Below are positions 19,351 through 39,572 of a stretch of DNA of 64,000 nt, one piece after another. Below the pieces are notes generated by a model. It was not told the DNA's origin, searched no databases, and was given only the letters and a program-made list of their open reading frames with translations. This stretch comes from Bacteriovoracia bacterium. Its GTDB lineage: Bacteria; Bdellovibrionota; UBA1018; JBFWNL01. The position numbers and the translations under genes are program-made. The DNA is taken from the NCBI GenBank assembly GCA_050251055.1, contig JBFWNL010000010.1, positions 1 to 64,000 on the forward strand, given 5' to 3'. The number at the start of each line of letters is the position of its first letter. The first letter of the stretch is position 1.

Positions 19351-21300
<1,950 letters not shown>

Positions 21301-21851
21301 AGAAACTGCTAAACTCCTTCATTTCGATGAGAAGGTCAAGGCGCGCGAGCGCGGATCCGCGCGAATCATTTCGCCTTTTCCTCAAAGATTTCGTGCGAAA
21401 AACATGCCTGCATTCTGAGTGGGAAAGGAATTGGATAAGAACCTTAAGCGCAAGCCTAAAGCCAGCCTTAAAACCACTGTTTTATTTATTAATATCAAAT
21501 ACTTACAAATGTACCCAGAATTCGATTTCACCTCAGAGACAAACACACTGCCGGTTTCCGCGTCGTAGCCCCTCTGAGCCGCCCTATAAAACTTTCGTCG
21601 TTTTGGAACAAAAAAAGTCACCGCCGACGGAGTGGGAAGAATTAATTCAGATAAAACTTTTTTGGTCCATTATGCTTACTACACCAAACCCCACGAAATC
21701 AGATTTAAATACCTTATGGCTTGATGCGTTAAAAAAAAATTGACTAACGCTTCTTAAAATGAAATCAACGCATCGAGTCAAAATTCAAGGTTGGTGGGTG
21801 ACCTGAGAGATCTTCCCCCTAACGACTGATTTCCTCGAGGAGCGGATAGCG

Positions 21852-24800
21852 ATGCAGAACTTCCTTTCGACTTTTTTGGCCGCGGTTTTTCCTTCAGCCA
21901 TGATGGCTAACCTTCCCGCCCAAAATCTCACCGACATGGTCCTGGTAAATGACTCGAACCAGGCTTTTTACATCGATATTTTTGAACCCACCGCAACCCA
22001 GGTCAACGCGATCGTGCGTGGAGCGGCCTCGAACGATCCGAACAAAGCTGCCCGAATCACTCGATTCGAAAACGCCGTGGCATTCTGCGAACGCCAAGGC
22101 AAACGGGTGCCCACCCAGCAAGAGTGGATGGCTGCCGCCTCGAACTTGGGACGGAATCGTAACTACACGCTCCGCGGAGATGCCCTCCAAGACGCGCGGG
22201 GTAATCTACTGGTCAATATCAACGGAAACTACCGGGAAGCGGACGGCAGCACGGGCTCGGCGTCGCCTTACCTCACATCCGCCCTTGGGATCGACGCCAT
22301 CGGCACGGTTGGCATGACGGGAAACCGCGCCGAATGGGTGTATAACAATCGGGCCTCCGGACAGTGCGGATCCCGCTACGAAGAAAACAACATCGCGAAC
22401 GCACGCCTCGATCGAATTTGTTCCGCGCCGCTAAGCGATTCGGCGACGGTCCGTTGCGTAACCAACGCCAACGGTGCCGACACCGTAACCTATTCGGCCA
22501 ACGTATCGGGCGAACTTTTGACCTACCTAAATCAGATCGGTGGCCGTGGAAACGGAGCCCCCCCGGCAGTGAACCCACCGGCAGGCAATGGCCGGCCTAA
22601 CAATCCCCCGGCACGCCCCGGCAACAACCGCCCCGGCGATGACGAACCCGAAGCTCCGGTGCAGGGACCTCCACCCGAACCCAAGTACGACAATGAATTC
22701 GGAATCAACCCGGACCAGCCGCTCGCCGTGAATGACGCCCGCGTGCTGCCGGTGACCGACTACCTCATCATTTACCACGAAACCGCGGAGTATTTCGCTG
22801 AGGAGACGGGCCTAGAGCTGACCCCCGGCGTTTACGTCGCTTCCCGCGGCATCCTCAATACCCGCTCCGATCTGCAGAACCTGTTGATGGGCGGCGTGTG
22901 GACCAATCCATTCGGCGATCTGGCGCCGATTACGGCGGGTTATGCCAGTGGCGTAGCCGGGCCGGAAACCCGTGACGAAATCTGGGCCTCCCAGAACAAC
23001 CAGTATTTCCGGCTGCAAGACGGGAATAAGAAACTGCAAGCCATCGTCAAGGGCGTGCCCTACAAAATCTTCCCGGCCACCCTGGGCGCGTTCTTCCTTA
23101 CGAAGGACCGCAAAGTGACTTTCGTTCCCCGTAAGGCGGAAAACACGAAGTCCATGCAGCCCTTCAAGAACGTGAAGGTATTGAACGAAAACTATGTGAC
23201 CCTTACGCGCGACAAGCGCGGCCTGATCCTGCTCACCGAGTCCAAGCAGAAGAACATGGCGACCGTATCGATTTTGCGTTTTGACGGGAAGCTTACTCCG
23301 CTCGTGGACGTCGCCATGGAAGACGACCGCATTCGCGCGTCCGTTTCCGCGGACGGCATTTTCATCCCCACGAAGCAAGCCAAACCGGACGACCGCCAAG
23401 GCACCAGCATCGTCGGGTACATTCGCTTGGCGGACGACGGCTCGGTCATCGATCGCCGGGACAATATCTTCGAAACCCGCCCTGGCCAAGACTTGGTGTT
23501 TGAAGCGGAATGGCCCGAAGTCCGCGTGCGCAAAGCGCTCGGGGGCCGCATCTCTTATCGCGTGGCGGCCGACGGCTCGCTGCATGACAAGGCTCGAGGC
23601 GGCGACTCGGCGGCCACCCCGACCGGAGAAAATCTCCGTACGCTTAAAACCTTCGCCGAACATTGGACCGAAAAGGCCGCCAACGGCGACTTCGACGACC
23701 TGATGGATCGCGATGATTACATTGGCGACGCGCTGAACGTCATGCGCGCGAACAAAAACACTTGGGTGAACATTAACGGTCCGTTCGGCGTCGGCAAAAC
23801 CACACTGCTCAAGCTCATTGCCCGCACGGTCAACGCCCAGTCTGCTGCGAAGAAAGACTGGGTCGGCTACCAAGTATTCCACCTGCCGCTTTCCTCGGTG
23901 GCTGCCCTCATGGGCACCCAGGTCCAAGAAGGCGGGCAAGGCGGCGCGGCACCTCAGGCGGCCCCTAGCGCGGAGCAGCCCATTAACCGTCTACTCGAAG
24001 CGGTGGCGGGCAAGAAAGTCATCCTCGTGATGGACGACTTCCTGGACGACCCGAAGCTGGGACCCACGAACGTACAAAAATCGCTGGATGTATTCCTCGG
24101 CGCTTTCCGCGAAAAAATCGTCACTGGCCAATTGAAAATCGTGACCACGACGGACGCGCGCCTCTGGGTACAGGCCTTCGACCAAAACCCCGCCCTCGGC
24201 AACATGGTCACGACGGTCACCGTGCAGTCCGCCGGAATGACGGAATTGGCGATGATCCTGGGCGCCGAAATGCGCGCGCTTGAAAAACACTGGCGGTTGA
24301 AGTTCGACGCCGGCGTACTGGATGTCATCATCAACTCCGCCGCGGAAATCGATCCGACGACGCAAGAACCCCACCGTTCGATCAAGGCCGTGAACAAGCT
24401 GGCGTCGCTCCTAGGCGACGAAGTCAAACGCTCGGGCAGCCAGCTCATGATCGTGAGCGAGCAAAAGGCCCGATCCATCCTCCTTACGGGCGGATTAGTG
24501 GACGACGGCGTCGATGTCGAGCAACTCGGGCCTTATCTATCTTCGAAAATATTAGGCCAAGAAGAAGCAATCGATCGGATTTCCACTTCCATGCAAAGCT
24601 TGGCGCTCGGCGTGACCTCCCGCCGCGGAACGCGAGCGGTGCTCTTCCTGATCGGGCCCACGGGTACGGGCAAGACCTACGCTTCCGAGCTCATGGCGAA
24701 GTTCTTGAAAAAAGAAATCGTCAAGATCGATATGACGAAGTTCACGGGATTCACGGAACAGACCTTGTATACCCAAAAGATCAAGTCTCTGGGCGACAAG

Positions 24801-25478
24801 GACTACGTCCTTATCCTCGATGACATCGACAAGAGCCCGAACGCGAACAAGATCCTAACGGAATTGCGCCCGATCTTCGACGATGGCGTCTACGGACGCG
24901 GCACGAAGGACGAGCTTAGCTTCCGTAACGCGATCGTGATCATCACCGGCAACTACGCGGCCCAGCTGATATTGGACGCGAAGAACGACCCGCACGAAAT
25001 CATGAAGAATAAGGTGCGGGATTACGTGTTCGCCGACAAAACGCCGGATGCGGAAAAAATACCGAAGCACGTATGGTCCCGAATCGAGTCCTCGATCATC
25101 ATCTTTAAGGGCTTGAGCGTCGAGACCCTCATGCAAATCGCCCAGATATCGGCACAGCAGCTCAGTGCGGACATGCGCAATCGCTTCAATATTAGCGTCA
25201 CGCTGTCTAATCGTCTGATCGCGAACTTGGTCCACAAGAGCGCGGAAGCCGAGCTCGGTGCGGTTCCGGTGCAAAAGAAGATCGAGACCGAAGTGAAGGA
25301 AAAAATCGCCTTGCACATGGTCAAAGCCGAACGTGACGGCCGCCGCTACAAGATCCGGCAAATCGCCGTGAATCTCAACAGCGCCGACGAGATCATCTTG
25401 ACCGACGATCAACAGCCGGGTTTCGCCTCCGCCCTCAAACAGGCCGGTGAGCCCGCCGATGCAGGAGAACAACCATGA
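21852..25478 (+). CDS. FGE-sulfatase-like domain fused to a degenerate Clp/Hsp100 double-AAA+ module
   Basis: FYIDIFEPT, AFCERQGKRVPTQQEWMAAA, MTGNRAEWV; Pro/Asn linker; Walker A GPFGVGKT and GPTGTGKT; Walker B VILVMDD and VLILDD. Confidence 0.8.
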   Translation: MQNFLSTFLAAVFPSAMMANLPAQNLTDMVLVNDSNQAFYIDIFEPTATQVNAIVRGAASNDPNKAARITRFENAVAFCERQGKRVPTQQEWMAAASNLGRNRNYTLRGDALQDARGNLLVNINGNYREADGSTGSASPYLTSALGIDAIGTVGMTGNRAEWVYNNRASGQCGSRYEENNIANARLDRICSAPLSDSATVRCVTNANGADTVTYSANVSGELLTYLNQIGGRGNGAPPAVNPPAGNGRPNNPPARPGNNRPGDDEPEAPVQGPPPEPKYDNEFGINPDQPLAVNDARVLPVTDYLIIYHETAEYFAEETGLELTPGVYVASRGILNTRSDLQNLLMGGVWTNPFGDLAPITAGYASGVAGPETRDEIWASQNNQYFRLQDGNKKLQAIVKGVPYKIFPATLGAFFLTKDRKVTFVPRKAENTKSMQPFKNVKVLNENYVTLTRDKRGLILLTESKQKNMATVSILRFDGKLTPLVDVAMEDDRIRASVSADGIFIPTKQAKPDDRQGTSIVGYIRLADDGSVIDRRDNIFETRPGQDLVFEAEWPEVRVRKALGGRISYRVAADGSLHDKARGGDSAATPTGENLRTLKTFAEHWTEKAANGDFDDLMDRDDYIGDALNVMRANKNTWVNINGPFGVGKTTLLKLIARTVNAQSAAKKDWVGYQVFHLPLSSVAALMGTQVQEGGQGGAAPQAAPSAEQPINRLLEAVAGKKVILVMDDFLDDPKLGPTNVQKSLDVFLGAFREKIVTGQLKIVTTTDARLWVQAFDQNPALGNMVTTVTVQSAGMTELAMILGAEMRALEKHWRLKFDAGVLDVIINSAAEIDPTTQEPHRSIKAVNKLASLLGDEVKRSGSQLMIVSEQKARSILLTGGLVDDGVDVEQLGPYLSSKILGQEEAIDRISTSMQSLALGVTSRRGTRAVLFLIGPTGTGKTYASELMAKFLKKEIVKIDMTKFTGFTEQTLYTQKIKSLGDKDYVLILDDIDKSPNANKILTELRPIFDDGVYGRGTKDELSFRNAIVIITGNYAAQLILDAKNDPHEIMKNKVRDYVFADKTPDAEKIPKHVWSRIESSIIIFKGLSVETLMQIAQISAQQLSADMRNRFNISVTLSNRLIANLVHKSAEAELGAVPVQKKIETEVKEKIALHMVKAERDGRRYKIRQIAVNLNSADEIILTDDQQPGFASALKQAGEPADAGEQP

Positions 25479-26341
25479 GGCTAACCTCTTCGCGCTTGAA
25501 CATATTGAGCCTATCCGTGATCGCGCTGCTCGCGGCCACTACGTCCGCGGGTGACCCGCCGGGCGGAGGGATTCCTTCCGGCCCGGATTCCGGGATGACC
25601 CGCAAAAGCCGGACGACGGCGGTCCTATTCGTGCTGGACATCTCGAACTCAATGTCCCGCGGCCCGATCACGCGTGTGAAGCAGACGATCACCCAGGTCG
25701 CCAGCTCGGTATCACCGGAAACCGGCCTAGGATTGATTTCCTTCTGGGGCTGCAAGGAAACCGACAACAACCTCGATTTCCCCTTGGCGACGGGCGCGGA
25801 CAACCAGAAAAGCTTGATCCAGGTGGCCAGCGCCATCCAGACCAAGCACGGAACCAACATCTATAGCGCCCTGATGCTCGCGGAGAAGGAAATCCAGCGC
25901 GTGAAGGATTGGTGCGTGAACGTAATCCTCCTCAGCGACGGCTTCGAGAACTGCGGACCGGGCGACTTCCGCTCCGTGGTCGGACGCATCGTTGGCCAGC
26001 ACGGTAGCGGCTGCAATGCCGTTCACACCATCAGCGTGTCGACGATGGGCTGGGAGAATAAGGTGCTCAAGGAAATTTCCGAACTAGGGCACGGCTCCCA
26101 CCAGGAAGTCGAAGAAGAAAAAGAAATCGAAGTGGCGATCACGAAGGTAGTTGAAGCCGTCAAACATACCCAGAAGGTGAAATGGGCGGGCGACGGCAAG
26201 CCGGCGGAGAAGAAAGAGGGCGAAGAGGCCCCGAAAACCGACGACACGACGCCGCCAGCGGAAGCCCCGGCCCCCGACGGCCCTCCACCCGCCCCGGCCG
26301 AAGCCCCCATTAAGAAGCAGAAAGAAAACGGAAAGCAATAA
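25475..26341 (+). CDS. Exported VWA-domain protein with intact MIDAS
   Basis: Signal peptide; FVLDISNSM (DxSxS), GTNIYSAL, ILLSDG; Pro-rich tail; ATGA overlap with the upstream gene. Confidence 0.88.
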   Translation: MRLTSSRLNILSLSVIALLAATTSAGDPPGGGIPSGPDSGMTRKSRTTAVLFVLDISNSMSRGPITRVKQTITQVASSVSPETGLGLISFWGCKETDNNLDFPLATGADNQKSLIQVASAIQTKHGTNIYSALMLAEKEIQRVKDWCVNVILLSDGFENCGPGDFRSVVGRIVGQHGSGCNAVHTISVSTMGWENKVLKEISELGHGSHQEVEEEKEIEVAITKVVEAVKHTQKVKWAGDGKPAEKKEGEEAPKTDDTTPPAEAPAPDGPPPAPAEAPIKKQKENGKQ

Positions 26342-26374
26342 CCCCAACCCCAACGAGATAGAGGATCCCGAACC

Positions 26375-28840
26375 ATGAAGAGCCTGAAGAATTCCGTACA
26401 GAAACCGATGATTTTCGCGAGCCTGGGCTTGGCCCTGCAAGCCGCCACGGCCATCGGCGCCTCCGCTAACGACTGCGTCGTTCGCCATAAAGCGAACTTC
26501 GACGAAGTGAAACCCGCCGGCGGCGGATACTGCGTCGGCGTGATGAATCCCAACAACGACCGTTTCGCGGAAGACAAGGATTATAACTACGTTGAAGGCA
26601 GCCTGATCTGGTTGAGCGACCAGTCAGACAAGCGCATCAAGCGCATCGGCAACATCCCGATGCAGTGGCTAGTTCTCGATAAAGGCGTCATCGGCGTTTA
26701 CTCGTCCGGCGCCAACTACTCCATCCGGTACTGGAACTCCGACACCTTGGGCACGCGCACCTGCAAGAGCGACATTAAGGTGGAAGACGTCAAGAAGGGC
26801 ACGACCAAGATCGAGCTGGGCAAGAATTTCATCCGCGTCGCCTCCCCGAGCGGTAACGAAGATTGGTACGGCGGCGCCGACGGCAACTGCACGAGCAAAA
26901 ACGCGCGCGCCTTCATGAATTTGACCTCGGAAGATCGCCGCGTGCTCGAGAAATACGGCACGAGCGGGGGTACCGGTGAATCCAACGAACTCACCAACCC
27001 CGTGGTGGCCGCCAAGCTGCGCATGCCGAAGGGCCGCGACGGCGTGATGAAGAATATGATCCAGGCCATGCAAAGCCAAGACATCCGCTCTGTACTGCTT
27101 TGGGGAGCGGCCGGCACGGGCAAGACGACGATCGCTTACGGCATCGCCAAGCGCATCGCGCAGAAAGATCCGACGCTGCCGGAATGGATCCGCGACTGGA
27201 GCATCTATGCCATCGATCTCTCCAAAGTGAACGAAGAAGGCGCCCTGGGCGTCGCGCAGAAGAAGATGACCGAGATCATCCAAGCCGCCGCCGGTAAGAA
27301 GGTGATTCTCTTGATGGACGAAATCCATCAGCTGCTAGGCCTCGGCGCCCGTGAGTCGGGATCCTCCGACGTTACGGATGCGCTCAAGACCCCGCTCGCC
27401 AACGGCCAGATCTGCATCATCGGAACCCTGACGGGCGACGTTGCCGAAAAGGGCCGTTTCGACGCGAACTCGGCGTTCCAACGCCGCTTCTCCCAGATGA
27501 TGATCGACGAGCCGAGCGACGAAGTGCTGCGGGAAATCTTCCGTGACTATGCCGACGAGATGACGAAGAAGTACAACGTCACTTACGACGACTTAGCCTT
27601 AGAAGAGATGATCAAGCTCACGCGCCAGTATGGCAACGGCCAGAAACACCCGGCCGTAGGCATCAACTTCCTCGATCAACTTTCCGCCTCGAAGGAAAAG
27701 AACGAGGGCGAAGCTTACGCCATCGTGGTCGCCGACATTAAAGCCAAAGTCGGCCTCATGTTCAACGTGGCGGCGCTGAAGCCGGTTGACCCGGCGAAGA
27801 AGGAAAAAACCATGGGCCAGAAGGCCGTGGTCTTCAAGGCCGAAATCAGCAAGCAGTTCATCGGCCAGACGTCTGCCCTAGACGTCGTGCAGCGGGGTCT
27901 CACGATCTACGCCGCACGCGGGGCTAAGCCCGGCAAGCCTCCGGTGTTCCTGTTCTTGGGGCCCTCCGGCGTGGGGAAGACTTACCTCGCCGAATTGACC
28001 GCCAAGTACTTCAACATGCCTTATAAGGAATTCAAGATGGAAGGCTATCAGCAGGAGCACAGCGTGGAGTCCCTGAAGGGTTCCCCGCAAGGTTACGTTG
28101 GCTCCCAAGAAGGCGGCGCGCTGCCGAACTGGATCAGCCAGAACCCGACTTCCGTGCTGAACTTCGATGAAATCGACAAGGCCCACCCACGCGTCCTGCA
28201 ATATCTAATGGGATTGTTGGAGCAGGGCGTGGTGCAGGACGGCAAGGGTAACGAGCACACCTTCCGCGGCGTCGTATTCCTCACTTCGAACTACCTGCTC
28301 GAAGTGATCGAGGAATGGGATCGCGCGAATGGAATCGAGGACAACGAGTGGAAAGCCACCAATGGCGACGCGAAACCGCCGTCGACCGGCATCGGATCCT
28401 ACACTCCGGAACAGCTCAAGCAGCACCTCATGAACCTGCTCGAGAAGCCGGGTGAAAACGGACAAGATCAGAAGATCGGGTCGTTCATCACCGGCCGTAT
28501 CGGGCTTGAGAACATCGTCATCTTCAACCACTTCAACAAGGAGCAAGCGAAGCAAGTCGCGATGCTCGAAGTGAAGAGCGTGCTCAAGAAGATGAAGGAA
28601 GACTACAAGAAAGACGTCGTGCCGGATCCTGCCCTCGTCGAGCACATCGTCAGCAACGGCTTCAGCTTCAAGTACGGCGCCCGCCCGGTTCGCGGCATGG
28701 CGGTGAGCTTGATCGAAGGACCGGTCGCCGAAAAGATGATCGAAATGGAAGGCCAGGAAGACCAGATCAAACGCCTGGTCGTCGGCATCCAAGGCGCTGG
28801 CCGCAGCGCCCGCGGCGTCGTACGGGTCGAGACGGAGTAA
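26375..28840 (+). CDS. ClpA/B-like double-AAA+ ATPase with N-terminal signal peptide
   Basis: GAAGTGKT, LLMDEIH, AFQRRF; GPSGVGKT, GYVG, FDEIDKAHP, LTSN, YGARP; N-terminus MKSLK...IFASLGLALQAATAIGASA. Confidence 0.88.
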   Translation: MKSLKNSVQKPMIFASLGLALQAATAIGASANDCVVRHKANFDEVKPAGGGYCVGVMNPNNDRFAEDKDYNYVEGSLIWLSDQSDKRIKRIGNIPMQWLVLDKGVIGVYSSGANYSIRYWNSDTLGTRTCKSDIKVEDVKKGTTKIELGKNFIRVASPSGNEDWYGGADGNCTSKNARAFMNLTSEDRRVLEKYGTSGGTGESNELTNPVVAAKLRMPKGRDGVMKNMIQAMQSQDIRSVLLWGAAGTGKTTIAYGIAKRIAQKDPTLPEWIRDWSIYAIDLSKVNEEGALGVAQKKMTEIIQAAAGKKVILLMDEIHQLLGLGARESGSSDVTDALKTPLANGQICIIGTLTGDVAEKGRFDANSAFQRRFSQMMIDEPSDEVLREIFRDYADEMTKKYNVTYDDLALEEMIKLTRQYGNGQKHPAVGINFLDQLSASKEKNEGEAYAIVVADIKAKVGLMFNVAALKPVDPAKKEKTMGQKAVVFKAEISKQFIGQTSALDVVQRGLTIYAARGAKPGKPPVFLFLGPSGVGKTYLAELTAKYFNMPYKEFKMEGYQQEHSVESLKGSPQGYVGSQEGGALPNWISQNPTSVLNFDEIDKAHPRVLQYLMGLLEQGVVQDGKGNEHTFRGVVFLTSNYLLEVIEEWDRANGIEDNEWKATNGDAKPPSTGIGSYTPEQLKQHLMNLLEKPGENGQDQKIGSFITGRIGLENIVIFNHFNKEQAKQVAMLEVKSVLKKMKEDYKKDVVPDPALVEHIVSNGFSFKYGARPVRGMAVSLIEGPVAEKMIEMEGQEDQIKRLVVGIQGAGRSARGVVRVETE

Positions 28841-28846
28841 TAAGCC

Positions 28847-29785
28847 GTGCGCCGCGGATTAATCGCGCTAGCCGCTGCTCTAACATGGATGATTTCGGTG
28901 ATGGCGGCGCCCGGGATGGGCGCCGCCGAACCGCCGGAAGTGGCCGCCTTGGCCAAGTTCCGCGTGAAAATGCGTTCATTGAAAGCGGCGGTTGGCTACG
29001 TCGATTACAAAGTCGAAGTCAAAGGGGCGAATTACAGCAGTTTCTGTAACTTATTCCTGGTCGGCGAAAACCTGGCATTGACCGCATCTCATTGCATCAG
29101 CACGCAGGCCCAATGCGATACTGCCACTGCGTACTTCTCCGAGGACGGTGATAGCCCGACTCACCACTATGCTTGCAAGAAAGTGTTGGGTATCGGCGCT
29201 CCGTACGACGACAACCTGAAAAACCAAGATGACTTTTCGCTTTTGGAGCTGGAGGGCAAGCCCGGTTCAGATCTTTTGACCGCACCGCTGCACTTCATGC
29301 AGCCCACCGAAGGTCAGAAGTGGCTCTACGTTTTCCTGCCGAAGTACGACACGAAGACCCATATCAAGGATAACATCTCGAGAAGTCTGTCGATTTGCAT
29401 GGCTCGTCGCTCGCACGTGGAATCCGAGATCGGATCTTGGGAAATTAGGCCGCTGCCCAATTCGGACGAACCCTGTCATCTCATGCGTGGAAACTCCGGC
29501 GGACCGATTTTTAACATTCAAGGAAAGATTATCGGAATAGCCACTTGGCTCAAAGCCGCGGAAGGATCGGTGGGAGAGCTGAATGATAACCGCGTGATCG
29601 AAGCGAGAGGTCCTACGATCCAGTCGGTAACCAACAAGCTGGCATCATTGCGCCTGCTTTACCCGGTGGACGCGCCCAAGAACAAACCTGACCCGGAAAT
29701 GGGCCTAGGTACCGCGCCCGAAAAAGAAATCGTCACGATTCCCGCGACCAAGGCCGAACGCAAAAAAGCCCTCGAAGAAAAATAA
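28847..29785 (+). CDS. Exported trypsin-like (S1) serine protease
   Basis: Signal peptide; ALTASHC, DDFSLL, GNSGGP catalytic triad. Confidence 0.88.
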   Translation: MRRGLIALAAALTWMISVMAAPGMGAAEPPEVAALAKFRVKMRSLKAAVGYVDYKVEVKGANYSSFCNLFLVGENLALTASHCISTQAQCDTATAYFSEDGDSPTHHYACKKVLGIGAPYDDNLKNQDDFSLLELEGKPGSDLLTAPLHFMQPTEGQKWLYVFLPKYDTKTHIKDNISRSLSICMARRSHVESEIGSWEIRPLPNSDEPCHLMRGNSGGPIFNIQGKIIGIATWLKAAEGSVGELNDNRVIEARGPTIQSVTNKLASLRLLYPVDAPKNKPDPEMGLGTAPEKEIVTIPATKAERKKALEEK

Positions 29786-29789
29786 CTCG

Positions 29790-31757
29790 TTAACTGGATG
29801 GCGAATCCGGCGCGCCGCCGGTCAATTCCTTGCGCTTTTTCTGGACATCCAAATACATGGACATTAGCTCGGCTTGTCGGCCGGAATCCTGGTTGGCCGC
29901 CGCTTCGGCGAGATCCGCCTCGATTTTCTGCGAAAACGCACCCCATGCGCGCGCGAGTCCCTTGCTTAGCGCCAGCCGGATATCTTCGGAGGGGGTGCCG
30001 GCTTCCGCGATAAAAGTCTCCACGAGCAGCGACCGCAAGGCCGGGGGCAGCTCCTGCTCAAAAAGCAAGGCCTGCACGGCTGCCGGATCTTGGCGGCTGG
30101 TTTCCCATTCCGGCCGGGCGAGCAAGCGCGAAGCACAGTCTTTGAAAGCCGGATGCTGGAAAAGCTCGCTGAGCGGTGTCTGGGGCGGCAAATTCAGTTG
30201 GGCGTGGTTCCAATCGGTTTGAAACTCCGCCCACTTCGCCAGCGCGACCATCAATAACTTATCGGAGGGCCCCGGTTTGGCGCTCGCGGAAACGGGACGC
30301 GCGGCCGGGCGCACCGCCATGCCCACGCGAGGGCCGCCACCGGCCGGTGAATTCGGGTACGCCGGGGGCGCGGACTTCAGCGGCGGCAAGCCAAAGAGAT
30401 CGCGCCGAATACCCAAGCGCTGCTCGAGCGCGCTCACGCGGACTTCTCGTCCCACCGGATCCTGATAGAGGGCAAGCCACTGACCGATTTTTTTGATCGC
30501 TTGCGTCTTTTGCTCGGGCCCGTGGGTGGCAAGCTGCACTTGCTCGTCGATGCGCAGATCCAGCAAGGGCTTCGCCTCGCGCACCATCGCCTGCAGCCGT
30601 TCGGCGCCGCTCGGCTGCTCGCCTTGCGCGGGAAGCGCCGCGAATTCGTCGGGGTCGATATCCTCGGGCAAAAAAGCGGCGTGGACGATCACGCCTTGGC
30701 CAAGCGCCGTCTCCATCGCCCGGTCGGTGGCGTCACGGCCAGCCGTATCGCCGTCAAACAGAAGCACAATTCGGCTCGTAAGGCGCTGAAAGATCTGCAA
30801 GTGCTCGGTCGTGAGCGCGGTCCCACAGGTCGCCACTGCCTGCTTTAAGCCCGCCTTATGCAAGCCGAGGACATCGAAATAGCCTTCGACCAAGATCAGC
30901 TCGTCCAGCTCGCGAATATGCTTTTTGGCCTGAAATAGCCCAAAGGCGAGTTTACTTTTACGGAAAAGCGGTGACTCAGGCGAGTTGAGGTACTTCGGCG
31001 TATGGGCCCCATCCACCGAAGAGGAAGCATCGCCCGGAAGGATGCGCCCGCCAAAGCCCGCCACGCGCCCACGCAGATCCAAGATGGGGAACATCGCGCG
31101 ATTTCGAAATAGATCGAAATGACCCGTAACACTCGACTTCGCGCCCGGAGAAGAAGGCCGAATGAGCCCCAGCCGCGCGGCCATTTCCAAAGGCGCTTTC
31201 GCGTCCATCAGGCGCTTGGCCAAGCCTTCCCATTCCGCAGGCGCATAGCCCGCATAAAATTCCCGCTCAAGATCTCCGGTGATCCCGCGCTCGTCCAAAT
31301 AGCCACGCGCTTCCGCGCTCTGGGCGAGCGAATTACGGTAAAACGCCGCCGCGAAGCGATTGAGCTTGAACGCCACCGCCATCTCGTCGCGCTGTCCTCC
31401 CGAGCCAGGACCGTCCGCGCCGCTCGCCGAGCGCTTGATCACGCCCTCGAGCGAAATCCCCGCACGCGATGCGAGCTCCTCGACCGCCTCGATGAACGTG
31501 ATCCCGTGCAGATCAACCAAGAAGGAAATCATGTCGCCACCGGCCTTGCAGCCGTAGCAGTGGAAAAGCTGTTTCTGCTCGCTCACGCTGAAGGAGGGCG
31601 AACGCTCCGAGTGGAAGGGGCAGAGACCCGTATAGTTCGCGCCCTGCTTACGCAAAACCACGTGCTCGCCGACGATCTCGAGGATGCTGACCTTGTCCTT
31701 GATCTTACGCAGAAGTTCGGGCGAGATTTTGGACGAGCTGCCGGCGGACTGGCTCAT
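29790..31757 (-). CDS. dnaG: DNA primase
   Basis: CPFHSERSPSF...CYGC zinc finger, FRNRAMFPI, KYLNSPE, LVEGYFD, FDGDTAG; start re-called at the ATGA overlap with mpg. Confidence 0.97.
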   Translation of the reverse strand: MSQSAGSSSKISPELLRKIKDKVSILEIVGEHVVLRKQGANYTGLCPFHSERSPSFSVSEQKQLFHCYGCKAGGDMISFLVDLHGITFIEAVEELASRAGISLEGVIKRSASGADGPGSGGQRDEMAVAFKLNRFAAAFYRNSLAQSAEARGYLDERGITGDLEREFYAGYAPAEWEGLAKRLMDAKAPLEMAARLGLIRPSSPGAKSSVTGHFDLFRNRAMFPILDLRGRVAGFGGRILPGDASSSVDGAHTPKYLNSPESPLFRKSKLAFGLFQAKKHIRELDELILVEGYFDVLGLHKAGLKQAVATCGTALTTEHLQIFQRLTSRIVLLFDGDTAGRDATDRAMETALGQGVIVHAAFLPEDIDPDEFAALPAQGEQPSGAERLQAMVREAKPLLDLRIDEQVQLATHGPEQKTQAIKKIGQWLALYQDPVGREVRVSALEQRLGIRRDLFGLPPLKSAPPAYPNSPAGGGPRVGMAVRPAARPVSASAKPGPSDKLLMVALAKWAEFQTDWNHAQLNLPPQTPLSELFQHPAFKDCASRLLARPEWETSRQDPAAVQALLFEQELPPALRSLLVETFIAEAGTPSEDIRLALSKGLARAWGAFSQKIEADLAEAAANQDSGRQAELMSMYLDVQKKRKELTGGAPDSPSS

Positions 31758-32410
31758 GCCCGCCCCGCTTTCCGCGACGCTGGTGTCGACCACGGGCGCG
31801 CGGCTCGGTTTTGGCGAGACCGGCTCACGTACGGGTTACCCGCGATGAAATAGCGCCACTCTTGCTCGATCGCCTTCGTAATGCCCACGCGCGGGGACAC
31901 GTGGATCGCGGCGGACCGAAAGCCGTCGTCATACACAAAAAGCTCCGGGCCGCGTAACGACGCCCGGTTGTGCTTCATCCGGATGCCCATCGCCCGACAA
32001 AGTCTTCCCGGACCGTTCGTCCAATCGCGGCGGCTTGGACCGCGACGACGGCGCATCAGGGCGAAGCCCTCGAGCGGCTCCACCGCGCGGATCAGGACCG
32101 CGCCCGGCACGTGCTCGGCTTCGGTCACGAAATTGAGCATCTCGTACATCCCATAGATAAAATAAACGTAGGCGATTCCCGCCGCCTCGAACATCGGCGA
32201 GGTACGCGCGGTTTTTCCCGTCGCTGAATGCGAAGCGGGATCGTCCCCCATATAAGCTTCGGTTTCCACGATGCGCCCCGCGGTGATCTGCTCATACGGG
32301 CCGCGCGCCTGGCGGACCACCAGGACTTTTCCCAGTAAATCGCGCGCAACCTCGTGAGTATCGCGCGCAAAAAAACGACGGGGGAGCAGCTTTCGCCGTC
32401 CCCCGTCCAA
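31754..32410 (-). CDS. mpg: DNA-3-methyladenine glycosylase (MPG/AAG)
   Basis: VARDLLGK, GRIVETEAY, AYVYFIYGMY, AVLIRA, NGPGRLC, PRVGI; TTG start inferred. Confidence 0.92.
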   Translation of the reverse strand: MDGGRRKLLPRRFFARDTHEVARDLLGKVLVVRQARGPYEQITAGRIVETEAYMGDDPASHSATGKTARTSPMFEAAGIAYVYFIYGMYEMLNFVTEAEHVPGAVLIRAVEPLEGFALMRRRRGPSRRDWTNGPGRLCRAMGIRMKHNRASLRGPELFVYDDGFRSAAIHVSPRVGITKAIEQEWRYFIAGNPYVSRSRQNRAARPWSTPASRKAGRA

Positions 32411-34349: not shown

Positions 34350-35234
34350 ATGAAATATAGCCACCGGAACCTACTTTGTATTTCCGCCTTACTCGCCGTG
34401 CTGAGCGGCTGCGCCGCCAGCATCGATGACGCCGAAGAAATCGGACAGTCCGTCGGAGACGCCATGGCGTCGGTGGATGAGTCGGCCGGGAACAATTCGG
34501 GAGGATTCGGGTGGCTGCCGTTTGATTCGGGCCGCGCGGTTCGCTACGCGGAACGCACGCCGATGGATACCCTGCAAAACTGGCTAGTCCCCGAAACCCA
34601 AGCGGCCGCATGCTGGGCCACGGCGACATTCGGCACCTGCACGGCCGGCGTGATGACCCGCACCTTCGGTGGCTGCACCTTGGTCGGCGTCACCCTCAAC
34701 GGCACGGTAACGCTGACTTTCAGCGACACCGCTTGCTCGATGGCTAGCACCGGAAATTCCGTCTCCCGTTCGCCTAACTTCACGCTCACGGGACGACGGG
34801 GAGCGACCCTCACGATTTCCCCGGACAACGGCGGATCACAGACGGTCACCCGCACGGGCGCGAACGCGTTCACCTACAGTAATTCCGGAATCCGGCGCGT
34901 AGCGACTAGCGTTGGCGGCGCCACGCTCTTCGATTTATCGTTTAAAACCACGACGGCCATTGGCGTAACGGGAGCAACACGCGCGACCCGCGTACTAGAC
35001 GGCGGCACCTTGCAAATCACCCACAACACCAAGAGTTACGTCGTGGCGCTCAGCCCTTCGCAGGTGACCTGGAGTTCGTCCTGCAGCTGCGCGGTTTCTG
35101 GGACCTGGAGCGGCACCGTCAGCGGGACCTACAGCGGAAACTTCACGGTGGAAATCACGGGTTGCGGCACGGCCAAAGTAACGTCCAACGGCGCTAGCGA
35201 AGACATCACGCTGGATCGTTGCGCGGGAGTTTAA
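34350..35234 (+). CDS. Thr/Gly/Cys-rich putative lipoprotein
   Basis: Lipobox LSGC; extended beta-rich body with several Cys. Confidence 0.65.
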   Translation: MKYSHRNLLCISALLAVLSGCAASIDDAEEIGQSVGDAMASVDESAGNNSGGFGWLPFDSGRAVRYAERTPMDTLQNWLVPETQAAACWATATFGTCTAGVMTRTFGGCTLVGVTLNGTVTLTFSDTACSMASTGNSVSRSPNFTLTGRRGATLTISPDNGGSQTVTRTGANAFTYSNSGIRRVATSVGGATLFDLSFKTTTAIGVTGATRATRVLDGGTLQITHNTKSYVVALSPSQVTWSSSCSCAVSGTWSGTVSGTYSGNFTVEITGCGTAKVTSNGASEDITLDRCAGV

Positions 35235-36157
35235 TCCCAGAGCGCGACGAGGAATCCGCCGCCACCGGCGCCGGTCAGTTTCGTCGCGAGCGCGCCTTGG
35301 CGCTTGAGTTCCGCGTGCAACGCAGAAACCGAATCCGGCACGAGCCCCCAGCCTTCGTAACAGCCTTGGCCTTGGGACATCGCCGAAGCCACTCGTTCCA
35401 AACCGCGCGCGCGATCTTCGGATCCGCCCCGGCCAAAAAGCTGTAAACCTTCGATCGCCTCGGCCGTCGCGGCCTTCATCTGGCGATCCAGCGCTTCGCC
35501 CCGCGCGGGATCCAATTCCGCCACCCGCTTCACCTTCTCGATGCAATCGCTGGTACGGCCGCGCACGCGCGTATCGTGGAATGTAAACTTCGGCAGGCCG
35601 CTCGCGAGCAGGAGCGGGGTAATGCCCACCTCCCCGGGTTCGGTCGTACGCCGGTAAACGATCGGTTGACCGCTGGCGACGACAGCCACGTCCATGCCGC
35701 TGCTTTTGCCGTGAAAGTAGTCCTCAAGCTCGGTAGCCACGGCCACCGGCTTTTCGAAGGCATACCCCGTGCGGGCGGAAAACCAACGGGTGACCGCCAC
35801 GCATAACGCGGCCGATGAACCCAGGCCGCCTCCCACGGGGATCGTGCTCTGTATCCGCAGCGTTCCGCCCGGAGCTTTCGCCCCGGACTTTCGCTCTAAC
35901 TGTCGCACCAGCTCGAGCACCGGCGAATAAATATGGTCACGACCGGAACGCCCCACCTTCAACTCACCGGCGCCGTCCGCCTCGAAAGAAAGCGTGAGGG
36001 AATACTCCGGATGTGGCATCGCGATCGCCGAACCCCCGCGCAGCACGGTGTGCTCGCCCGTCAGTACCCATTTCCCGGGTACCGTGACCTGGCTAGCGAG
36101 GAGCCCGCGATCGACGTTCGACTCGGCGGTGCGGAATGTGTCCGACGCGAGAATCAT
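35231..36157 (-). CDS. mvk: Mevalonate kinase (GHMP family)
   Basis: PGKWVLTGEH, PVGGGLGSSAA, HGKSSGMD, KLTGAGGGG; within the mevalonate operon. Confidence 0.82.
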   Translation of the reverse strand: MILASDTFRTAESNVDRGLLASQVTVPGKWVLTGEHTVLRGGSAIAMPHPEYSLTLSFEADGAGELKVGRSGRDHIYSPVLELVRQLERKSGAKAPGGTLRIQSTIPVGGGLGSSAALCVAVTRWFSARTGYAFEKPVAVATELEDYFHGKSSGMDVAVVASGQPIVYRRTTEPGEVGITPLLLASGLPKFTFHDTRVRGRTSDCIEKVKRVAELDPARGEALDRQMKAATAEAIEGLQLFGRGGSEDRARGLERVASAMSQGQGCYEGWGLVPDSVSALHAELKRQGALATKLTGAGGGGFLVALWD

Positions 36158-37311
36158 GACAACAGCTTCGCTCCGTCGCCCTGCGGGTCTTCGAGAAATT
36201 CCAGGTCAGGAAATTTCACGGTCAATAGCTCACGCCACTGCGCGGCCTTGGACTTCGCCACGAGCAGATGTACGTTCGGCCCGGCGTCCAACGTGACAAT
36301 CGGCGGAACCTGGTTATGGTCAAGCGCGGCGTTGTAAAGCGTAGCGAGCCACTTGAGGATCTCGATCGAGCGCGGCTCAAAGTAAGTGAACGGACGCTCG
36401 CAGGTATGAAAAAGACTGTGCATCTCCCAGGCTTCCGCCCAAGCGATCTTGGCGACGCCCGTGAGATCGCCTGAGGCGAGCGCGGTCTCAAGCTGGGTCA
36501 TGCGTCCGGCCACGCGATCCACGCGCCCCGTCCAAAGCGGTGACTGCAGCACGCGCAGGTGCGCTTCGCTGGAAGACACCTGCTTGCTTTCACGGCTCAC
36601 GAGGAGCACGAAATCGACCATCTCGGGCATCTTTGACGTTACGGCGGCGGCACGCTCCCCTTCCCACTTCACCCAAGGGCCTTCGAGCGAGCGGCACGAG
36701 CTGCCCGAACCTTGGCGGGAGAGCGCGGCAAAGGCCCGCCGAAAATCCGCTTGGGTTTGCCAAACCTTTTCGAAAGCCTTCACGTCGCGCGCGAAGGTCG
36801 CGGCGGCGGCGAGGGTGATGGCGGCAAAGCTCGAAGCACTGGACGCGATGCCGGCGGCGGCCGGAAAGGAATTGCAGGTGCGCCAGTTGATATCGCAGTC
36901 GAGATCAAACTGTAGACCGTGGGCGCCGAAGACCTCCGGCACGAAGCGCTGAACGCGCTCAATCTGCTTGTTCACCTTGGTCACGCCATGGTCGTTCAGC
37001 GCCGGCGCCATCCAAGGGGACTGCGGGGCGCGGGACTTAGCGGCCGCCGCCGATTTCGCGGCGCCTTTTTCCGCGGCAGCGGCGGTCAGCTTTTCAAGTT
37101 CCATGCGGGGAAGCTCTGGGATCCAGCGGAATACACACTGTTTTCCCTTCGTCGGCATGCGCTCGAACTCCACCACGGTCTGCAGCGAATTCAGGGTCAT
37201 CGACAGGCTGCCGTTCGCGGGCAGGTTCTGGGAAGCGTCCTTCTTTCCCATGTATTTAATGATCGCGATGTTAGAGGGCGCGCTGGCGAAAATCGACGTT
37301 TTGGTGCTCAT
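36154..37311 (-). CDS. mvaD: Diphosphomevalonate decarboxylase
   Basis: APSNIAIIKYMGK, FPAAAGIASSAS, RQGSGSSCRS, TLDAGPNVH. Confidence 0.92.
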   Translation of the reverse strand: MSTKTSIFASAPSNIAIIKYMGKKDASQNLPANGSLSMTLNSLQTVVEFERMPTKGKQCVFRWIPELPRMELEKLTAAAAEKGAAKSAAAAKSRAPQSPWMAPALNDHGVTKVNKQIERVQRFVPEVFGAHGLQFDLDCDINWRTCNSFPAAAGIASSASSFAAITLAAAATFARDVKAFEKVWQTQADFRRAFAALSRQGSGSSCRSLEGPWVKWEGERAAAVTSKMPEMVDFVLLVSRESKQVSSSEAHLRVLQSPLWTGRVDRVAGRMTQLETALASGDLTGVAKIAWAEAWEMHSLFHTCERPFTYFEPRSIEILKWLATLYNAALDHNQVPPIVTLDAGPNVHLLVAKSKAAQWRELLTVKFPDLEFLEDPQGDGAKLLS

Positions 37312-37321
37312 ATGGTCTCCC

Positions 37322-38299
37322 TCATTTCAGGCCGTCCTCGAATTCAATTCCTTGCCAAAGCAGTTTCAGTCCCCGGGCTTCGGCGGTTTGGCGGAGCGCC
37401 GCCGCTTCCGCGGGCCCTAAGCGCGCGGGATCCACGAGCGCCATCATATTATCCGCCAGCAGGGCGCCCCCGCCCTTCACGCCGAGCACGCCGGGAAGCG
37501 CGCGCAAGGCGCGACGATCTTCGGCGGCCTCCGCTAACTCCAGGCCCGCTTCGGACAATGCATTCGCGTAGTCGTCCATCGCCCGACCGAGCGCGGGCAA
37601 ATCGGTTTCCTCGAGCGCGCGCTGGCCGCCGACGGCAACCGCGGTCAAGCGATCGATCAAGTCTCCCGAGTGCTTCGGAAATCCCAAACGGCCAAGCGCC
37701 TGCAGATGCTCGTGCGTGGGAACCTTGCGCCCGGGCTTGCCCGTCGCCGAGAAAACCCAGAACTGCGAACCCCACCCCCGGCGGCAGTCTTCGATCTTCT
37801 CCGCTTCCAAGTGACAAACGGCCAAACCACCGTTGATCTGGGCGGCGAGGTCGGCGCCGCTCGGAGGCAGGGCCTGATCACCGGTCAAGCGGCGGTAGAG
37901 GCGCCAAGCCGCCCATGCGTTCAATTCGGACTTCCGGCCATTGGCTTCCATCACGGCCTGGTAAAGCAGCGCGAACTCGGCGGTGGATCCACCGAACCCC
38001 CCGGCACCCCCGTGAGCGTCGCGGAATTGAAACCACGGGACATTTAACTTCTCATGGGCGGCCCACTTCAATAATAGGCCAGCCGGACTTTCGGGATGGA
38101 ACCCCCCGAGCATTTCCGGCGTTGCTTCCCAGTCGGGCTCCACGACGAGGTGAAAGCGCGGACCGACGGCGGCGACGATCGCGGGCTTGCCCAGGAGGGC
38201 GATGTATTCGCCCAGTAAGAAAATTTTCCCGCCGACGGAGTACTCGCGGCTAGAGCTCGACGGATTCGTTCGCGCGTGCGGGTGGTACGCACTGGTCAC
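37322..38299 (-). CDS. Divergent GHMP kinase, probable phosphomevalonate kinase
   Basis: GKIFLLGEY, GFGGSTA, PSGADLAAQ, KGGGALLAD; operon position. Confidence 0.65.
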   Translation of the reverse strand: MTSAYHPHARTNPSSSSREYSVGGKIFLLGEYIALLGKPAIVAAVGPRFHLVVEPDWEATPEMLGGFHPESPAGLLLKWAAHEKLNVPWFQFRDAHGGAGGFGGSTAEFALLYQAVMEANGRKSELNAWAAWRLYRRLTGDQALPPSGADLAAQINGGLAVCHLEAEKIEDCRRGWGSQFWVFSATGKPGRKVPTHEHLQALGRLGFPKHSGDLIDRLTAVAVGGQRALEETDLPALGRAMDDYANALSEAGLELAEAAEDRRALRALPGVLGVKGGGALLADNMMALVDPARLGPAEAAALRQTAEARGLKLLWQGIEFEDGLK

Positions 38300-39572
38300 G
38301 GATCGCCTCCAATACTTCCTTGGCGTGGGTCAGGTTGATCCGCTTCTCCTGCATGAGCAGCGCGGCCAAGCGCTCGCGGCACTCGGCAATTTCATGGATT
38401 TCCGCACCGGCGGCGATCGCCAAGTTCGCCGCGTGCAACTTCATATGTCCTTGTACGATCCCGACCGTCGAAAGCGCGCGCAGCGCGCCCAGGTTCTGCA
38501 CCAGGCCCACGGCCACGCAGATGCGCGCGAGGTCGTCGGCGTGTTCGATGCCCATCATCTTCAGGGCCACCTTCGCCGTCGGATGCGAGCGGGTCACCCC
38601 GCCCACCGTTCCCACGGCCATCGGGATCTCGATCTGGCCGATCAGATCGCCGCCTTCCATGCGCCAATCGGTGATGGGCTGGTAGCGTCCGGAACGGGAA
38701 GCGTACGCGTGCACGCCCGCTTCCACCGCGCGCCAGTCGTTGCCGGTGGCGATCAAGATGGGGTCAATGCCGTTGAGCACGCCCTTATTGTGCGTGGTCG
38801 CGCGGTAGGGATCGGCCTTCGCGAAGATCGCGGCCTCGCAGATGCCCTTGCCCACGGCGGGATCGATGTCGCGGATGACGATCTCGGCGACGACCAAACG
38901 GCCGTCCGTCAAATTGGAGAGGATGCACATGCCAACGCGCTCGCCGGTCAGCGTTTCGATGCGGGGCTTGAGCGCTTCGCAAACTTGGTTGATAAGGTTC
39001 GCGCCCATGGCGTCGCAGGTGTCGCAAAGGAGGTGGAGCACCAGCATCTGACCGCCGTCCGGGCGATCGAGCACCCGTACGCCGATGTCACGCACGCCGC
39101 CGCCGCGCTTGACGATACCCGGCATGCATTCGTTGCCGAGCTCGATGAGCCGGTCACGGTTTTCGTGCAAGAGGTTGCGCGCGCGCTGGGCGTCGGCGAC
39201 GAGCGGGAGCTGGATCTGGCCAATCACCAAACGACCCTTCACGTAAGTGCGAATATGACCTTCGCGCGCGACCCATTTCGCGGTAGCGCTCGCGGCGGCC
39301 ACGATGGAGGTTTCTTCGACCGCCATCGGGATCAGGACGTTCTTACCGTCGATCTTGAAATAGGTGGCAACTCCCAGGGGAATCGCGAACGTGCCGACCA
39401 CGTTCTCGATGAGGTTGTCGGCCATTTCGGCCGAAAGCGAATCTTCGCCGGAAAGCGCCAGTACTTCCGAATCCGTGAGCCCGCAAAATTTTTGCACGCG
39501 CGCCAAGCGCTCCGTACGAGTCAGCTTATGGAAGCCGGTCATTAATTGCTGTTGTTCTTCTTGATCGAGCAT
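38250..39572 (-). CDS. mvaA: HMG-CoA reductase, class II
   Basis: ENVVG, PMAVEETS, DAMGAN, RATTHNKG, GNDWRAVEAG, GHMKLH. Confidence 0.95.
   Translation of the reverse strand: MLDQEEQQQLMTGFHKLTRTERLARVQKFCGLTDSEVLALSGEDSLSAEMADNLIENVVGTFAIPLGVATYFKIDGKNVLIPMAVEETSIVAAASATAKWVAREGHIRTYVKGRLVIGQIQLPLVADAQRARNLLHENRDRLIELGNECMPGIVKRGGGVRDIGVRVLDRPDGGQMLVLHLLCDTCDAMGANLINQVCEALKPRIETLTGERVGMCILSNLTDGRLVVAEIVIRDIDPAVGKGICEAAIFAKADPYRATTHNKGVLNGIDPILIATGNDWRAVEAGVHAYASRSGRYQPITDWRMEGGDLIGQIEIPMAVGTVGGVTRSHPTAKVALKMMGIEHADDLARICVAVGLVQNLGALRALSTVGIVQGHMKLHAANLAIAAGAEIHEIAECRERLAALLMQEKRINLTHAKEVLEAIRDQCVPPARANESVEL

Follow-up and report, generated by a model that had tools for sequence, protein, structure and literature searches.

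A pore-loop-less Clp-like protein encoded beside an intact-looking Clp-like motor in a four-gene cassette of a Bacteriovoracia bacterium

The genes described here lie within a 64,000-nucleotide stretch of DNA (the window) from a Bacteriovoracia bacterium, positions 1 to 64,000 of the forward strand of contig JBFWNL010000010.1 in assembly GCA_050251055.1. The subject is P0001, a Clp-like AAA+ protein encoded by an intact frame of 1208 aa (21852..25478, +), together with the three genes that follow it on the same strand. The first of these encodes a vWA protein, P0003 (288 aa; 25475..26341, +), with a signal-like N-terminus and the MIDAS motif DISNS at residues 55–59. The second encodes the partner of the title, the Clp-like ATPase P0002 (821 aa; 26375..28840, +), with a signal-like N-terminus and an N-domain carrying four invariant Cys residues. 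The third is a trypsin-like serine protease, P0004 (312 aa; 28847..29785, +), with a signal-like N-terminus and the triad motifs TASHC, DDFSLL and GNSGGP. The spacing is that of an operon: the start of P0003 overlaps the stop of P0001 by 4 nt, and gaps of 33 nt and then 6 nt separate the remaining genes. A preliminary description of the locus, drawn from its letters alone, portrayed P0001 as a specialized pseudo-ATPase whose two nucleotide-binding rings had both lost their catalytic residues. The motif strings it quoted are all present in the 1208-aa frame; the start that it gave, 23630, lies one base out of frame, as residue 594 begins at 23631.

From its N- to its C-terminus, P0001 comprises a signal-like N-terminus, an FGE-sulfatase-like domain, a Pro/Gly-rich linker, a beta-propeller-like middle domain, a degenerate AAA+ module (D1) and an AAA+ module without a pore loop (D2) that ends in ClpB_D2-small. 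Pfam places AAA_2 at residues 931–1057 (47.3 bits) and ClpB_D2-small at residues 1088–1164 (26.5 bits). The NCBIfam ClpA model aligns with residues 592–1156, and P0001 misses the ClpA, ClpB and TssH equivalog cut-offs of 993, 1232 and 885 bits by a wide interval (107.1, 106.9 and 98.7 bits). Clp_N (PF02861) was not found in P0001 by a Pfam scan (25 of 26 families listed, E <= 0.01) or in the precomputed domain list, and the M-domain is missing, as a gap of about 100 columns in the alignment with ClpB. The best solved sequence relatives are ClpB (1qvr, 66.9 bits), Hsp104, Plasmodium HSP101 (6e10 and 6e11, about 65 bits), ClpC and ClpA. An AF2 model of residues 594–1208, built from 14 aligned sequences, has a mean pLDDT of 84.6 with both AAA+ modules confident; the mutual orientation of the two rings is uncertain because pTM is 0.52. 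The best Foldseek matches of this two-ring model are ClpC, ClpA and ClpB chains (E ~1e-29).

The N-terminal half of P0001 is of a different kind. The FGE-sulfatase (SUMF1)-like domain spans residues 72–168 (22065..22355, +; Pfam PF03781, 34.9–38.1 bits against a cut-off of 23.3). The family-specific middle domain, residues 285–600 (22704..23651, +), is predicted to be all-beta, and its AF2 model is confident (pLDDT 84.7, pTM 0.78). Foldseek gave a best E of 6.5e-5 with TMq <=0.35, and VIA a best Z of 7.9 to the propellers of an S9 peptidase and DPP4; neither returned a fold match at Z >= 8 or TMq > 0.35. The middling matches are beta-propellers of S9 peptidases, DPP4, TolB, BamB and sortilin. 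The model thus suggests a propeller-like fold without a family assignment. In the ESM Atlas, residues 285–930 met generic AAA clusters only, at 0.88, below the 0.9 level taken as a lead. The FGE-like N-terminal module (residues 1–237) also heads four other proteins of the window's own genome (G000), 300–735 aa long and 37–47% identical over the module, encoded at C1:568869-570995, C5:71930-72832, C5:75788-77995 and C1:766819-768705. The C-terminus of one of them weakly resembles PI3_PI4_kinase, scoring 24.9 bits where the cut-off is 27.1. The module looks like a common targeting or binding unit placed on varied C-terminal domains.

A HMMER search with P0001 residues 594–1208 against 1.84 billion cluster representatives identified seven orthologous representatives, P0065–P0071, at 280–426 bits and 32–39% identity; the next match scored 130 bits. 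They are 903–1173 aa long; the orthologues also include an N-terminally cut fragment of 729 aa. A word-based search added a close relative, P0005, at 32% identity. The counts over ten orthologues given below take in P0001, P0065–P0071, P0005 and a further copy encoded at locus L113, described below. A wider set of 16 sequences adds an in-genome paralogue of P0001, P0076, and five distant relatives (P0073, P0079, P0081, P0078 and a protein encoded on contig C2 of the same genome). In P0076 (1013 aa, contig C1) D1 is fully degenerate, and D2 keeps Walker A, the DE pair of Walker B, the sensor-1 Asn and the finger Arg and is without the pore loop. In all five distant relatives the N-terminus is signal-like, D2 Walker A is intact and the D2 pore loop is missing; D1 Walker A is lost in four of them and retained in P0078. 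The C2 protein (767 aa; G000:C2:127601-129904, equivalent to L117:8602-10905) is a fifth signal-peptide-bearing Clp-like protein of the genome. Its D1 is degenerate, and its D2 carries Walker A, an EE Walker B, Asn, Arg and GARP, without a pore loop.

D1 of P0001 has kept its P-loop and lost most of its catalytic residues. Walker A, GPFGVGKT (residues 643–650; 23778..23801, +), is intact, and its Lys is kept in seven of the ten orthologues. At the pore-loop position the alignment shows a low-complexity insert, EGGQGGAAPQAAPSAEQ (23928..23978, +), modelled with pLDDT <50 (residues 98–114 of the 594–1208 model). In Walker B, VILVMDDF (residues 723–730; 24018..24041, +), Asp replaces the catalytic Glu. 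Across the orthologues this pair reads DD in six, EN in two, DN in one and DE in one, so that the catalytic Glu is missing in 9/10; the sole copy with DE is without the Walker A Lys. At the arginine-finger position, NPALGNM (residues 779–785; 24186..24206, +), GN stands in place of RR and both Arg are lost, against NSAFQRRF at residues 365–372 of P0002. No orthologue has both of these Arg, and two have one. On sequence evidence, then, D1 is truly degenerate and without the residues for hydrolysis.

D2 presents another pattern. Its Walker A, GPTGTGKT (residues 935–942; 24654..24677, +), is intact in all ten orthologues, P0076 and the five distant relatives. The GYVG pore loop is absent: alignments with ClpB and P0002 show a deletion of about 16 residues, with FTGFTEQT (24741..24764, +) instead of GAPPGYVGYEEGG, and the deletion is likewise common to the ten orthologues, P0076 and the five distant relatives. 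Walker B, VLILDDIDK (residues 986–994; 24807..24833, +), reads DD in five orthologues and DE in the other five, and its second position is acidic in 16/16 sequences. Sensor-1, VIITGN (residues 1029–1034; 24936..24953, +), keeps its Asn, N1034, which is invariant (10/10). The arginine finger, HVWSRIE (residues 1073–1079; 25068..25088, +), is retained as Arg 1077, as had been noticed at the outset, and is present in 7/10 orthologues, P0076 and all five distant relatives. At the sensor-2 position, GAVPVQ (residues 1136–1141; 25257..25274, +), the Arg of GARPVR in P0002 is lost; it occurs in none of the ten orthologues, which have Val, Ile or Ser there, and is mostly kept in the distant relatives. 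This loss is no proof of inactivity, because classical AAA proteins carry GAD at the same position, as described in PMC5070193.

The orthologue alignment therefore bears out much of the preliminary description and corrects it in part. Loss of the D1 Glu (9/10), of the D1 RR pair, of the D2 pore loop and of the sensor-2 Arg are conserved substitutions. The exchange of Glu for Asp in Walker B of both rings is a property of P0001; for D2 it does not extend to the family, where DD and DE are equally frequent. The statement that both rings lose catalytic residues holds for D1 and fails for D2. Relaxed constraint is not the D2 pattern, because Walker A and sensor-1 (10/10), the arginine finger (7/10) and the acidic Walker B (16/16) are kept. 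D2 looks like a conserved nucleotide site in which substrate threading has been given up; it has probably retained ATP binding, perhaps with slow hydrolysis. The same data bear on whether P0001 is a decaying, functionless duplicate. Several catalytic residues are indeed missing, but the reading frame of 1208 aa is unbroken, the models of both rings and of the middle domain are confident, and the same substitutions recur in orthologues with intact frames at 28–39% overall identity, with 57 invariant columns among nine sequences. Decay is very unlikely, and specialization, as originally argued from the frame, is the better description.

The partner P0002 looks like a canonical motor by comparison. 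Walker A and Walker B (DE) are intact in both of its rings, and D2 also has GYVG, the sensor-1 Asn, the arginine finger and GAR; every canonical motif is thus found in D2 and most are found in D1. It scores 257 bits on the NCBIfam ClpA model. In the partner family, D2 has Walker A, DE, an aromatic pore loop, the sensor-1 Asn, the arginine finger and GAR in 5/5 sequences, and D1 is intact in 4/5. One partner homologue is named as coming from a Bacteriovoracaceae metagenome-assembled genome. Among the best 120 RpoD matches 16 are named, and 11 of these bear Bdellovibrionota-type names (Bdellovibrionota, Bdellovibrionales, Bdellovibrionia, Oligoflexia or Bdellovibrio).

Gene order was compared at five loci, which come from two genomes and one contig and are hence non-independent: the window; L113 and L114 (contigs C11 and C30 of G347, another genome of the phylum); L115 (contig C1 of G000); and L116 (a metagenome contig). 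A target-type gene is followed by a partner-type ATPase gene and a trypsin-like gene in all five. L113 and L116 have the same four genes as the window in the same order, encoding proteins of 907, 278, 784 and 262 aa and of 907, 271, 792 and 254 aa, respectively. At L114, the gene after that for target-type P0071 encodes a Clp-like protein of 1212 aa, in which a single D1 is joined to two D2 modules; a trypsin-like gene comes next, and a vWA domain was not detected in this cassette. The gene for the triple-module protein (D1, D2, D2) lies at L114:3586-7224 (-), and the same architecture is seen in P0080 (1158 aa). At L115, P0076 is followed by a 1085-aa fusion of vWA and partner-type ATPase, with a degenerate D1 and an intact D2, and then by a trypsin-like gene. 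The vWA domain is therefore a separate gene in 3/5 loci and fused to the partner in 1/5, and the fusion links it to the partner-type ATPase. Upstream of this paralogous cassette (L115:12173-17173, -) lie genes for three signal-like proteins of 454–475 aa without a family match, and a second trypsin-like gene (308 aa).

The distribution of the two families is narrow and coincident. The middle domain and D1 of P0001 were found in none of 126 other genomes of the class and in one of 400 other sampled genomes of the phylum, G347, which has two copies. The partner N-domain occurs in the same 2/401 phylum genomes, G000 and G347, and in G347 at the same loci. Sixty genomes of the same order, searched with residues 594–1208, returned housekeeping-grade matches only (<=72 bits). 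A pattern scan of genome contigs found no orthologue among the 80 loci listed, with a best segment <=30% identical; it was dominated by the generic GPTGVGKTY and is weak on absence. G000 is the sole member of its own genus and family in the genome collection used. A functional tie between P0001 and the neighbouring ATPase, proposed before any other genome had been considered, is borne out by the synteny and by this co-occurrence.

P0001 and P0002 are themselves related. Their alignment covers 620 columns with 22% identity (E = 4e-24), and the segment that the preliminary description saw in both, EAVAGKKVILVMDD in one and QAAAGKKVILLMDE in the other, is confirmed. A quick maximum-likelihood tree of D2 modules (49 rows, SH-aLRT support only) places the ten orthologues in one clade (98), which joins P0076 and P0073/P0079/P0081 (95). 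The partner family forms another clade (95). The target group, the partner group and the C2 protein join at an SH-aLRT of 90, apart from ClpA-, ClpB- and ClpC-like sequences. Ahead of the D1 Walker B acidic pair, both families have a KKV-IL-MD stretch that housekeeping Clp proteins do not. Several branches are long, so that long-branch attraction is a real caveat on the tree. The duplication claim is a claim about the AAA+ rings only, because the P0001 middle domain and the partner N-domain have no detectable relationship (hhalign probability 1.5%). A duplication, as first suggested, is compatible with these data; a common origin of the two families is plausible and not proven. Elsewhere on the tree, outside the target clade, stand four Clp-like proteins of 1124–1195 aa without Clp_N (P0014, P0035, P0033 and P0055). 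Their D2 is intact (DE, GAR); both termini are extended at length by unrelated sequence, and some of the proteins have precomputed PF03462 matches.

In the strict form of the preliminary description, P0001 would be dead in both rings and alternate with P0002 in a heterohexamer of the Pex1/Pex6 type, supplying only scaffold surfaces and an arginine finger to the ATP sites of P0002. The paralogous pair is syntenic in 5/5 loci and joins on the D2 tree, the D2 arginine finger is kept in 7/10 orthologues while their own sensor-2 Arg is lost in 10/10, and Pex1/Pex6 itself offers a precedent for heterohexamers with a degenerate D1 (PMC4490564). A D2 in which Walker A and sensor-1 are kept in 10/10 and Walker B is always acidic is, however, unlike a dead site. 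Both D2 rings of Pex1/Pex6 keep substrate-binding pore loops, as reported in PMC4490564, and P0001 has none. A strict 1:1 ring register is also hard to reconcile with the triple-ring partner at L114 and the vWA fusion with its degenerate D1 at L115. A wholly dead subunit is, on balance, unlikely.

At the other extreme, P0001 could be an autonomous, active, non-threading ATPase that forms its own ring, uses Asp or Glu as its base, remodels or releases a propeller-bound target, and is merely co-regulated with P0002. An autonomous slow ATPase is the main rival to the reading set out below, because the D2 site looks conserved and not abandoned. [quoted passage not shown] The C2 protein, related, exported-looking and pore-loop-less, has no partner. 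Against autonomy, the target and partner families occur together in both genomes that hold either, and three of the ten orthologues are without the arginine finger that a hydrolysing ring needs. A fully independent enzyme is judged unlikely.

Nearly all cassette proteins have a hydrophobic stretch within the first ~25 residues, usually ending in small-x-small; examples are MKSLKNSVQKPMIFASLGLALQAATAIGASA in the partner and MKPVHLILLGSLLASLGAFA in P0068. Such N-termini recur on the vWA protein, the partner and the protease across loci that are 30–40% identical. The housekeeping ClpB-like and ClpA-like proteins of G000 are without them, as is Anabaena ClpB. Invariant Cys residues, like the four in the partner N-domain, are usual in extracytoplasmic domains. 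A strict signal-peptide heuristic was passed by 7/10 full-length members of the target family; the heuristics are crude (of 1638 proxy genes, the strict rule passes 27% and the loose rule 42%), and the strict rule fails several obvious-looking signal peptides for technical reasons. The N-terminus of P0001, MQNFLSTFLAAVFPSAMMANLP (21852..21920, +; KD10 2.23), is hydrophobic and atypical, with no Lys or Arg ahead of the hydrophobic core. Export of the module is judged likely, and export of P0001 itself is less certain.

The same features bear on the proposal of a conflict or defence system of AAA+, vWA and protease components that works in the cytoplasm and whose signal peptides are mispredicted. 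AAA+ proteins with vWA partners and ATPase–protease pairs are common in cytoplasmic systems, the P0001 N-terminus is atypical, and PADLOC gives partial matches to DolB (51 and 80 bits), PDC-M37B (97 bits) and LmuA (33 bits). These matches, however, cover the generic AAA_2 or protease core (the 51-bit DolB match spans profile positions 134–280 of 375), the vWA protein has no PADLOC match, and no other system component was found among the four cassette proteins scanned. The recurrence of small-x-small N-termini at such low identity, and the invariant Cys residues, also speak against a cytoplasmic location, which is regarded as decidedly improbable.

Candidate ATP suppliers were noted near two cassettes. 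Directly after the L113 cassette lies a gene for a 424-aa membrane protein (L113:15216-16490, +), and a homologue, cut by the contig end, follows the L116 cassette by about 2 kb (L116:14445-14969, +; 45 bits). In the ESM Atlas the L113 protein falls in TLC/Npt ATP:ADP-transporter-like clusters (features 0.99, 242/256 shared; structure TM 0.90); it has no supporting Pfam or NCBIfam match. G000 encodes a homologue away from the cassette (C7:151107-152366; 71 bits). A link between this gene and ATP supply is possible and is only a lead.

The reading favoured here, with moderate confidence, is that P0001, itself non-threading, regulates the intact motor P0002 or serves as its adaptor within an exported four-gene module. 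It would work as follows. (i) Since the N-termini of nearly all components resemble signal peptides, the module's place of action would be outside the cytoplasm, at a site with ATP. (ii) The propeller-like middle domain of P0001, and in this copy its FGE-like N-domain, would bind a target or a surface. (iii) Because its pore loops are missing, P0001 would be unable to pull polypeptides through a pore. (iv) Its D2 would bind ATP, with at most slow hydrolysis, and binding would control assembly or conformation, as happens in those rings of other type II AAA+ proteins that do not hydrolyse; the residues that could touch a neighbour's ATP are still present in D2. (v) P0002 would be the unfoldase acting on the target, and the trypsin-like protease the peptidase that cuts it. 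P0001 may sit in a mixed ring with P0002 or in a separate ring.

Several observations weigh against this regulatory or adaptor reading. The adaptor role is read from domain content and gene order; a D2–D2 complex prediction (P0002 478–821 with P0001 885–1208) scored 0.00 in two runs without controls and carries no weight either way. The gene context comes from only the five non-independent loci described above. The C2 protein has no adjacent vWA, trypsin or partner gene (its neighbours, of 388 and 1291 aa, have no family match), and since it stands alone, pore-loop-less members of the clade need not always pair. Three of the ten orthologues are without the D2 arginine finger and three are without the D1 Walker A Lys, which means either that constraint on the nucleotide sites is uneven or that roles differ among orthologue copies. 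As far as residues can tell, the D2 DD/DE pair with its retained sensor-1 and arginine finger would equally fit a fully active autonomous ATPase. Lacking a basic residue, the N-terminus of P0001 passes the loose signal heuristic and fails the strict one, and both rules admit a large share of proxy genes. Finally, the module would need a source of ATP outside the cytoplasm.

A broader proposal follows from the same data and is put forward only tentatively. Some Bdellovibrionota may export a full ATP-dependent protein-processing machine consisting of a canonical Clp/Hsp100-type unfoldase, its pore-loop-less, ATP-binding paralogue as regulator or target adaptor, a MIDAS-vWA protein and a trypsin-like protease. 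Its site would be the periplasm or in or on prey, and its ATP would come from the prey or through a transporter. Cultured Bdellovibrionota are described in PMC11003981 as predators that secrete proteins into their prey. Such a machine, if real, would stand as the bacterial equivalent of torsin or of Plasmodium HSP101; it would also be an AAA+ protease system working beyond the cytoplasm, in which a peptidase of trypsin fold takes the place of ClpP. True export of the module would open two questions to experiment: what supplies ATP outside the cytoplasm, and whether predatory bacteria, ahead of proteolysis, unfold proteins of the prey or proteins that they secrete themselves.

The cassette is flanked on the left by rpoD (19351..21300, -) and on the right by dnaG (29790..31793, -). 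The two genes adjoin in all five other genomes checked (four of the same order and G347). In the window they are 8.5 kb apart, with the four-gene cassette between them on the opposite strand. Because the pair adjoins elsewhere and is split here, the cassette looks like an insertion into a dnaG–rpoD operon. Its G+C content (0.57–0.61) is the same as that of the rest of the window. A scan of 21200–30000 for promoters and terminators yielded nothing usable (2 promoter-like sequences against 3.2 expected, and 15 terminator-like against 13.3). A small ORF at 21327–21743 is not counted as a gene, having no family match and a low-complexity translation. Two DNA sequencing runs contain the stretch and may be where it came from, and no RNA run containing it is listed. 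Further along the window, a mevalonate-pathway cluster (35231–40627, -) encodes a GHMP kinase, a diphosphomevalonate decarboxylase-like protein, HMG-CoA reductase and an FMN-dependent dehydrogenase-like protein.

Neither the domain family of these ATPases nor the occurrence of degenerate rings among type II AAA+ proteins is novel in itself. What is new is a conserved clade of pore-loop-less Clp-like proteins with a mostly degenerate D1 and signal-like N-termini, its fixed pairing with an intact, exported-looking Clp-like motor, and the association of both with a trypsin-fold protease and a vWA protein. The usual view of Clp/Hsp100 unfoldases places them in the cytoplasm or in organelles, and no bacterial Clp/Hsp100 protein with a Sec-type signal peptide is known to have been described. 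A full-text literature search, covering few subscription journals, returned no description of the P0001 family, of such a system or of Sec-exported bacterial Clp-type ATPases, and no exported, periplasmic or predator-secreted AAA+ or Clp proteins.

Among known systems, ClpA, ClpB and ClpC are the closest in architecture: P0001 likewise has two tandem AAA+ modules, with AAA_2 and ClpB_D2-small in D2. It differs from them in the absence of Clp_N, the M-domain, the D1 Glu and arginine fingers, the D2 GYVG and the sensor-2 Arg, and in having a signal-like N-terminus and propeller-like and FGE-like domains instead. Plasmodium HSP101, of the PTEX translocon, is a Hsp100/ClpB-type double ring that is secreted and acts beyond the parasite's own membrane. 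It is, however, a canonical threading motor with pore loops, it is eukaryotic, and it has no degenerate paralogue, vWA protein or protease as a partner. Torsin is a Clp-D2-like AAA+ protein with a signal peptide and no threading pore loop, and it depends on a degenerate AAA+-like partner; LAP1 and LULL1, the partners concerned, are without nucleotide binding and donate an arginine finger. In both systems a Clp-like ATPase is placed outside the cytosol, for the cassette on condition that it is exported. P0001, in contrast, keeps both P-loops, and P0002 has its own arginine finger. The Pfam Torsin model gave no match to P0001 and 24.2 bits to P0002, below the cut-off of 27. The analogy with torsin and LAP1 drawn at the outset is thus a loose one.

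The D2 ring of NSF binds ATP, hydrolyses it slowly or not at all, and keeps the hexamer assembled. NSF belongs to another clade, and at its sensor-2 position a Lys contacts the gamma-phosphate, as described in PMC5070193, whereas the P0001 family has Val, Ile or Ser. MoxR–vWA systems such as NorQ/NorD resemble the cassette in that an AAA+ gene adjoins a MIDAS vWA gene (PMC9976466), as with the DISNS motif of P0003. The cassette ATPases are Clp-type double rings (AAA_2) and not single-ring MoxR proteins, and the vWA domain is fused to one of them at one locus. Pex1 and Pex6 are two paralogous double-ring AAA+ proteins that work together, as P0001 and P0002 would. Its D1 rings are without a canonical Walker B and arginine fingers, and activity resides in D2, unequally between the partners (PMC4490564). 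Pex1 and Pex6 belong to the classical AAA clade and are eukaryotic and cytosolic, and both of their D2 rings carry aromatic pore loops, according to PMC4490564. Both Pex partners have a degenerate D1, whereas in the P0002 family D1 is intact in 4/5 sequences, and the D2 of P0001 is without a pore loop. An intact motor accompanied by a conserved non-threading paralogue amounts to a natural experiment on the purpose of degenerate AAA+ rings, and the same question of purpose stands for the D1 rings of Pex1/Pex6 and for the cofactors of torsin.

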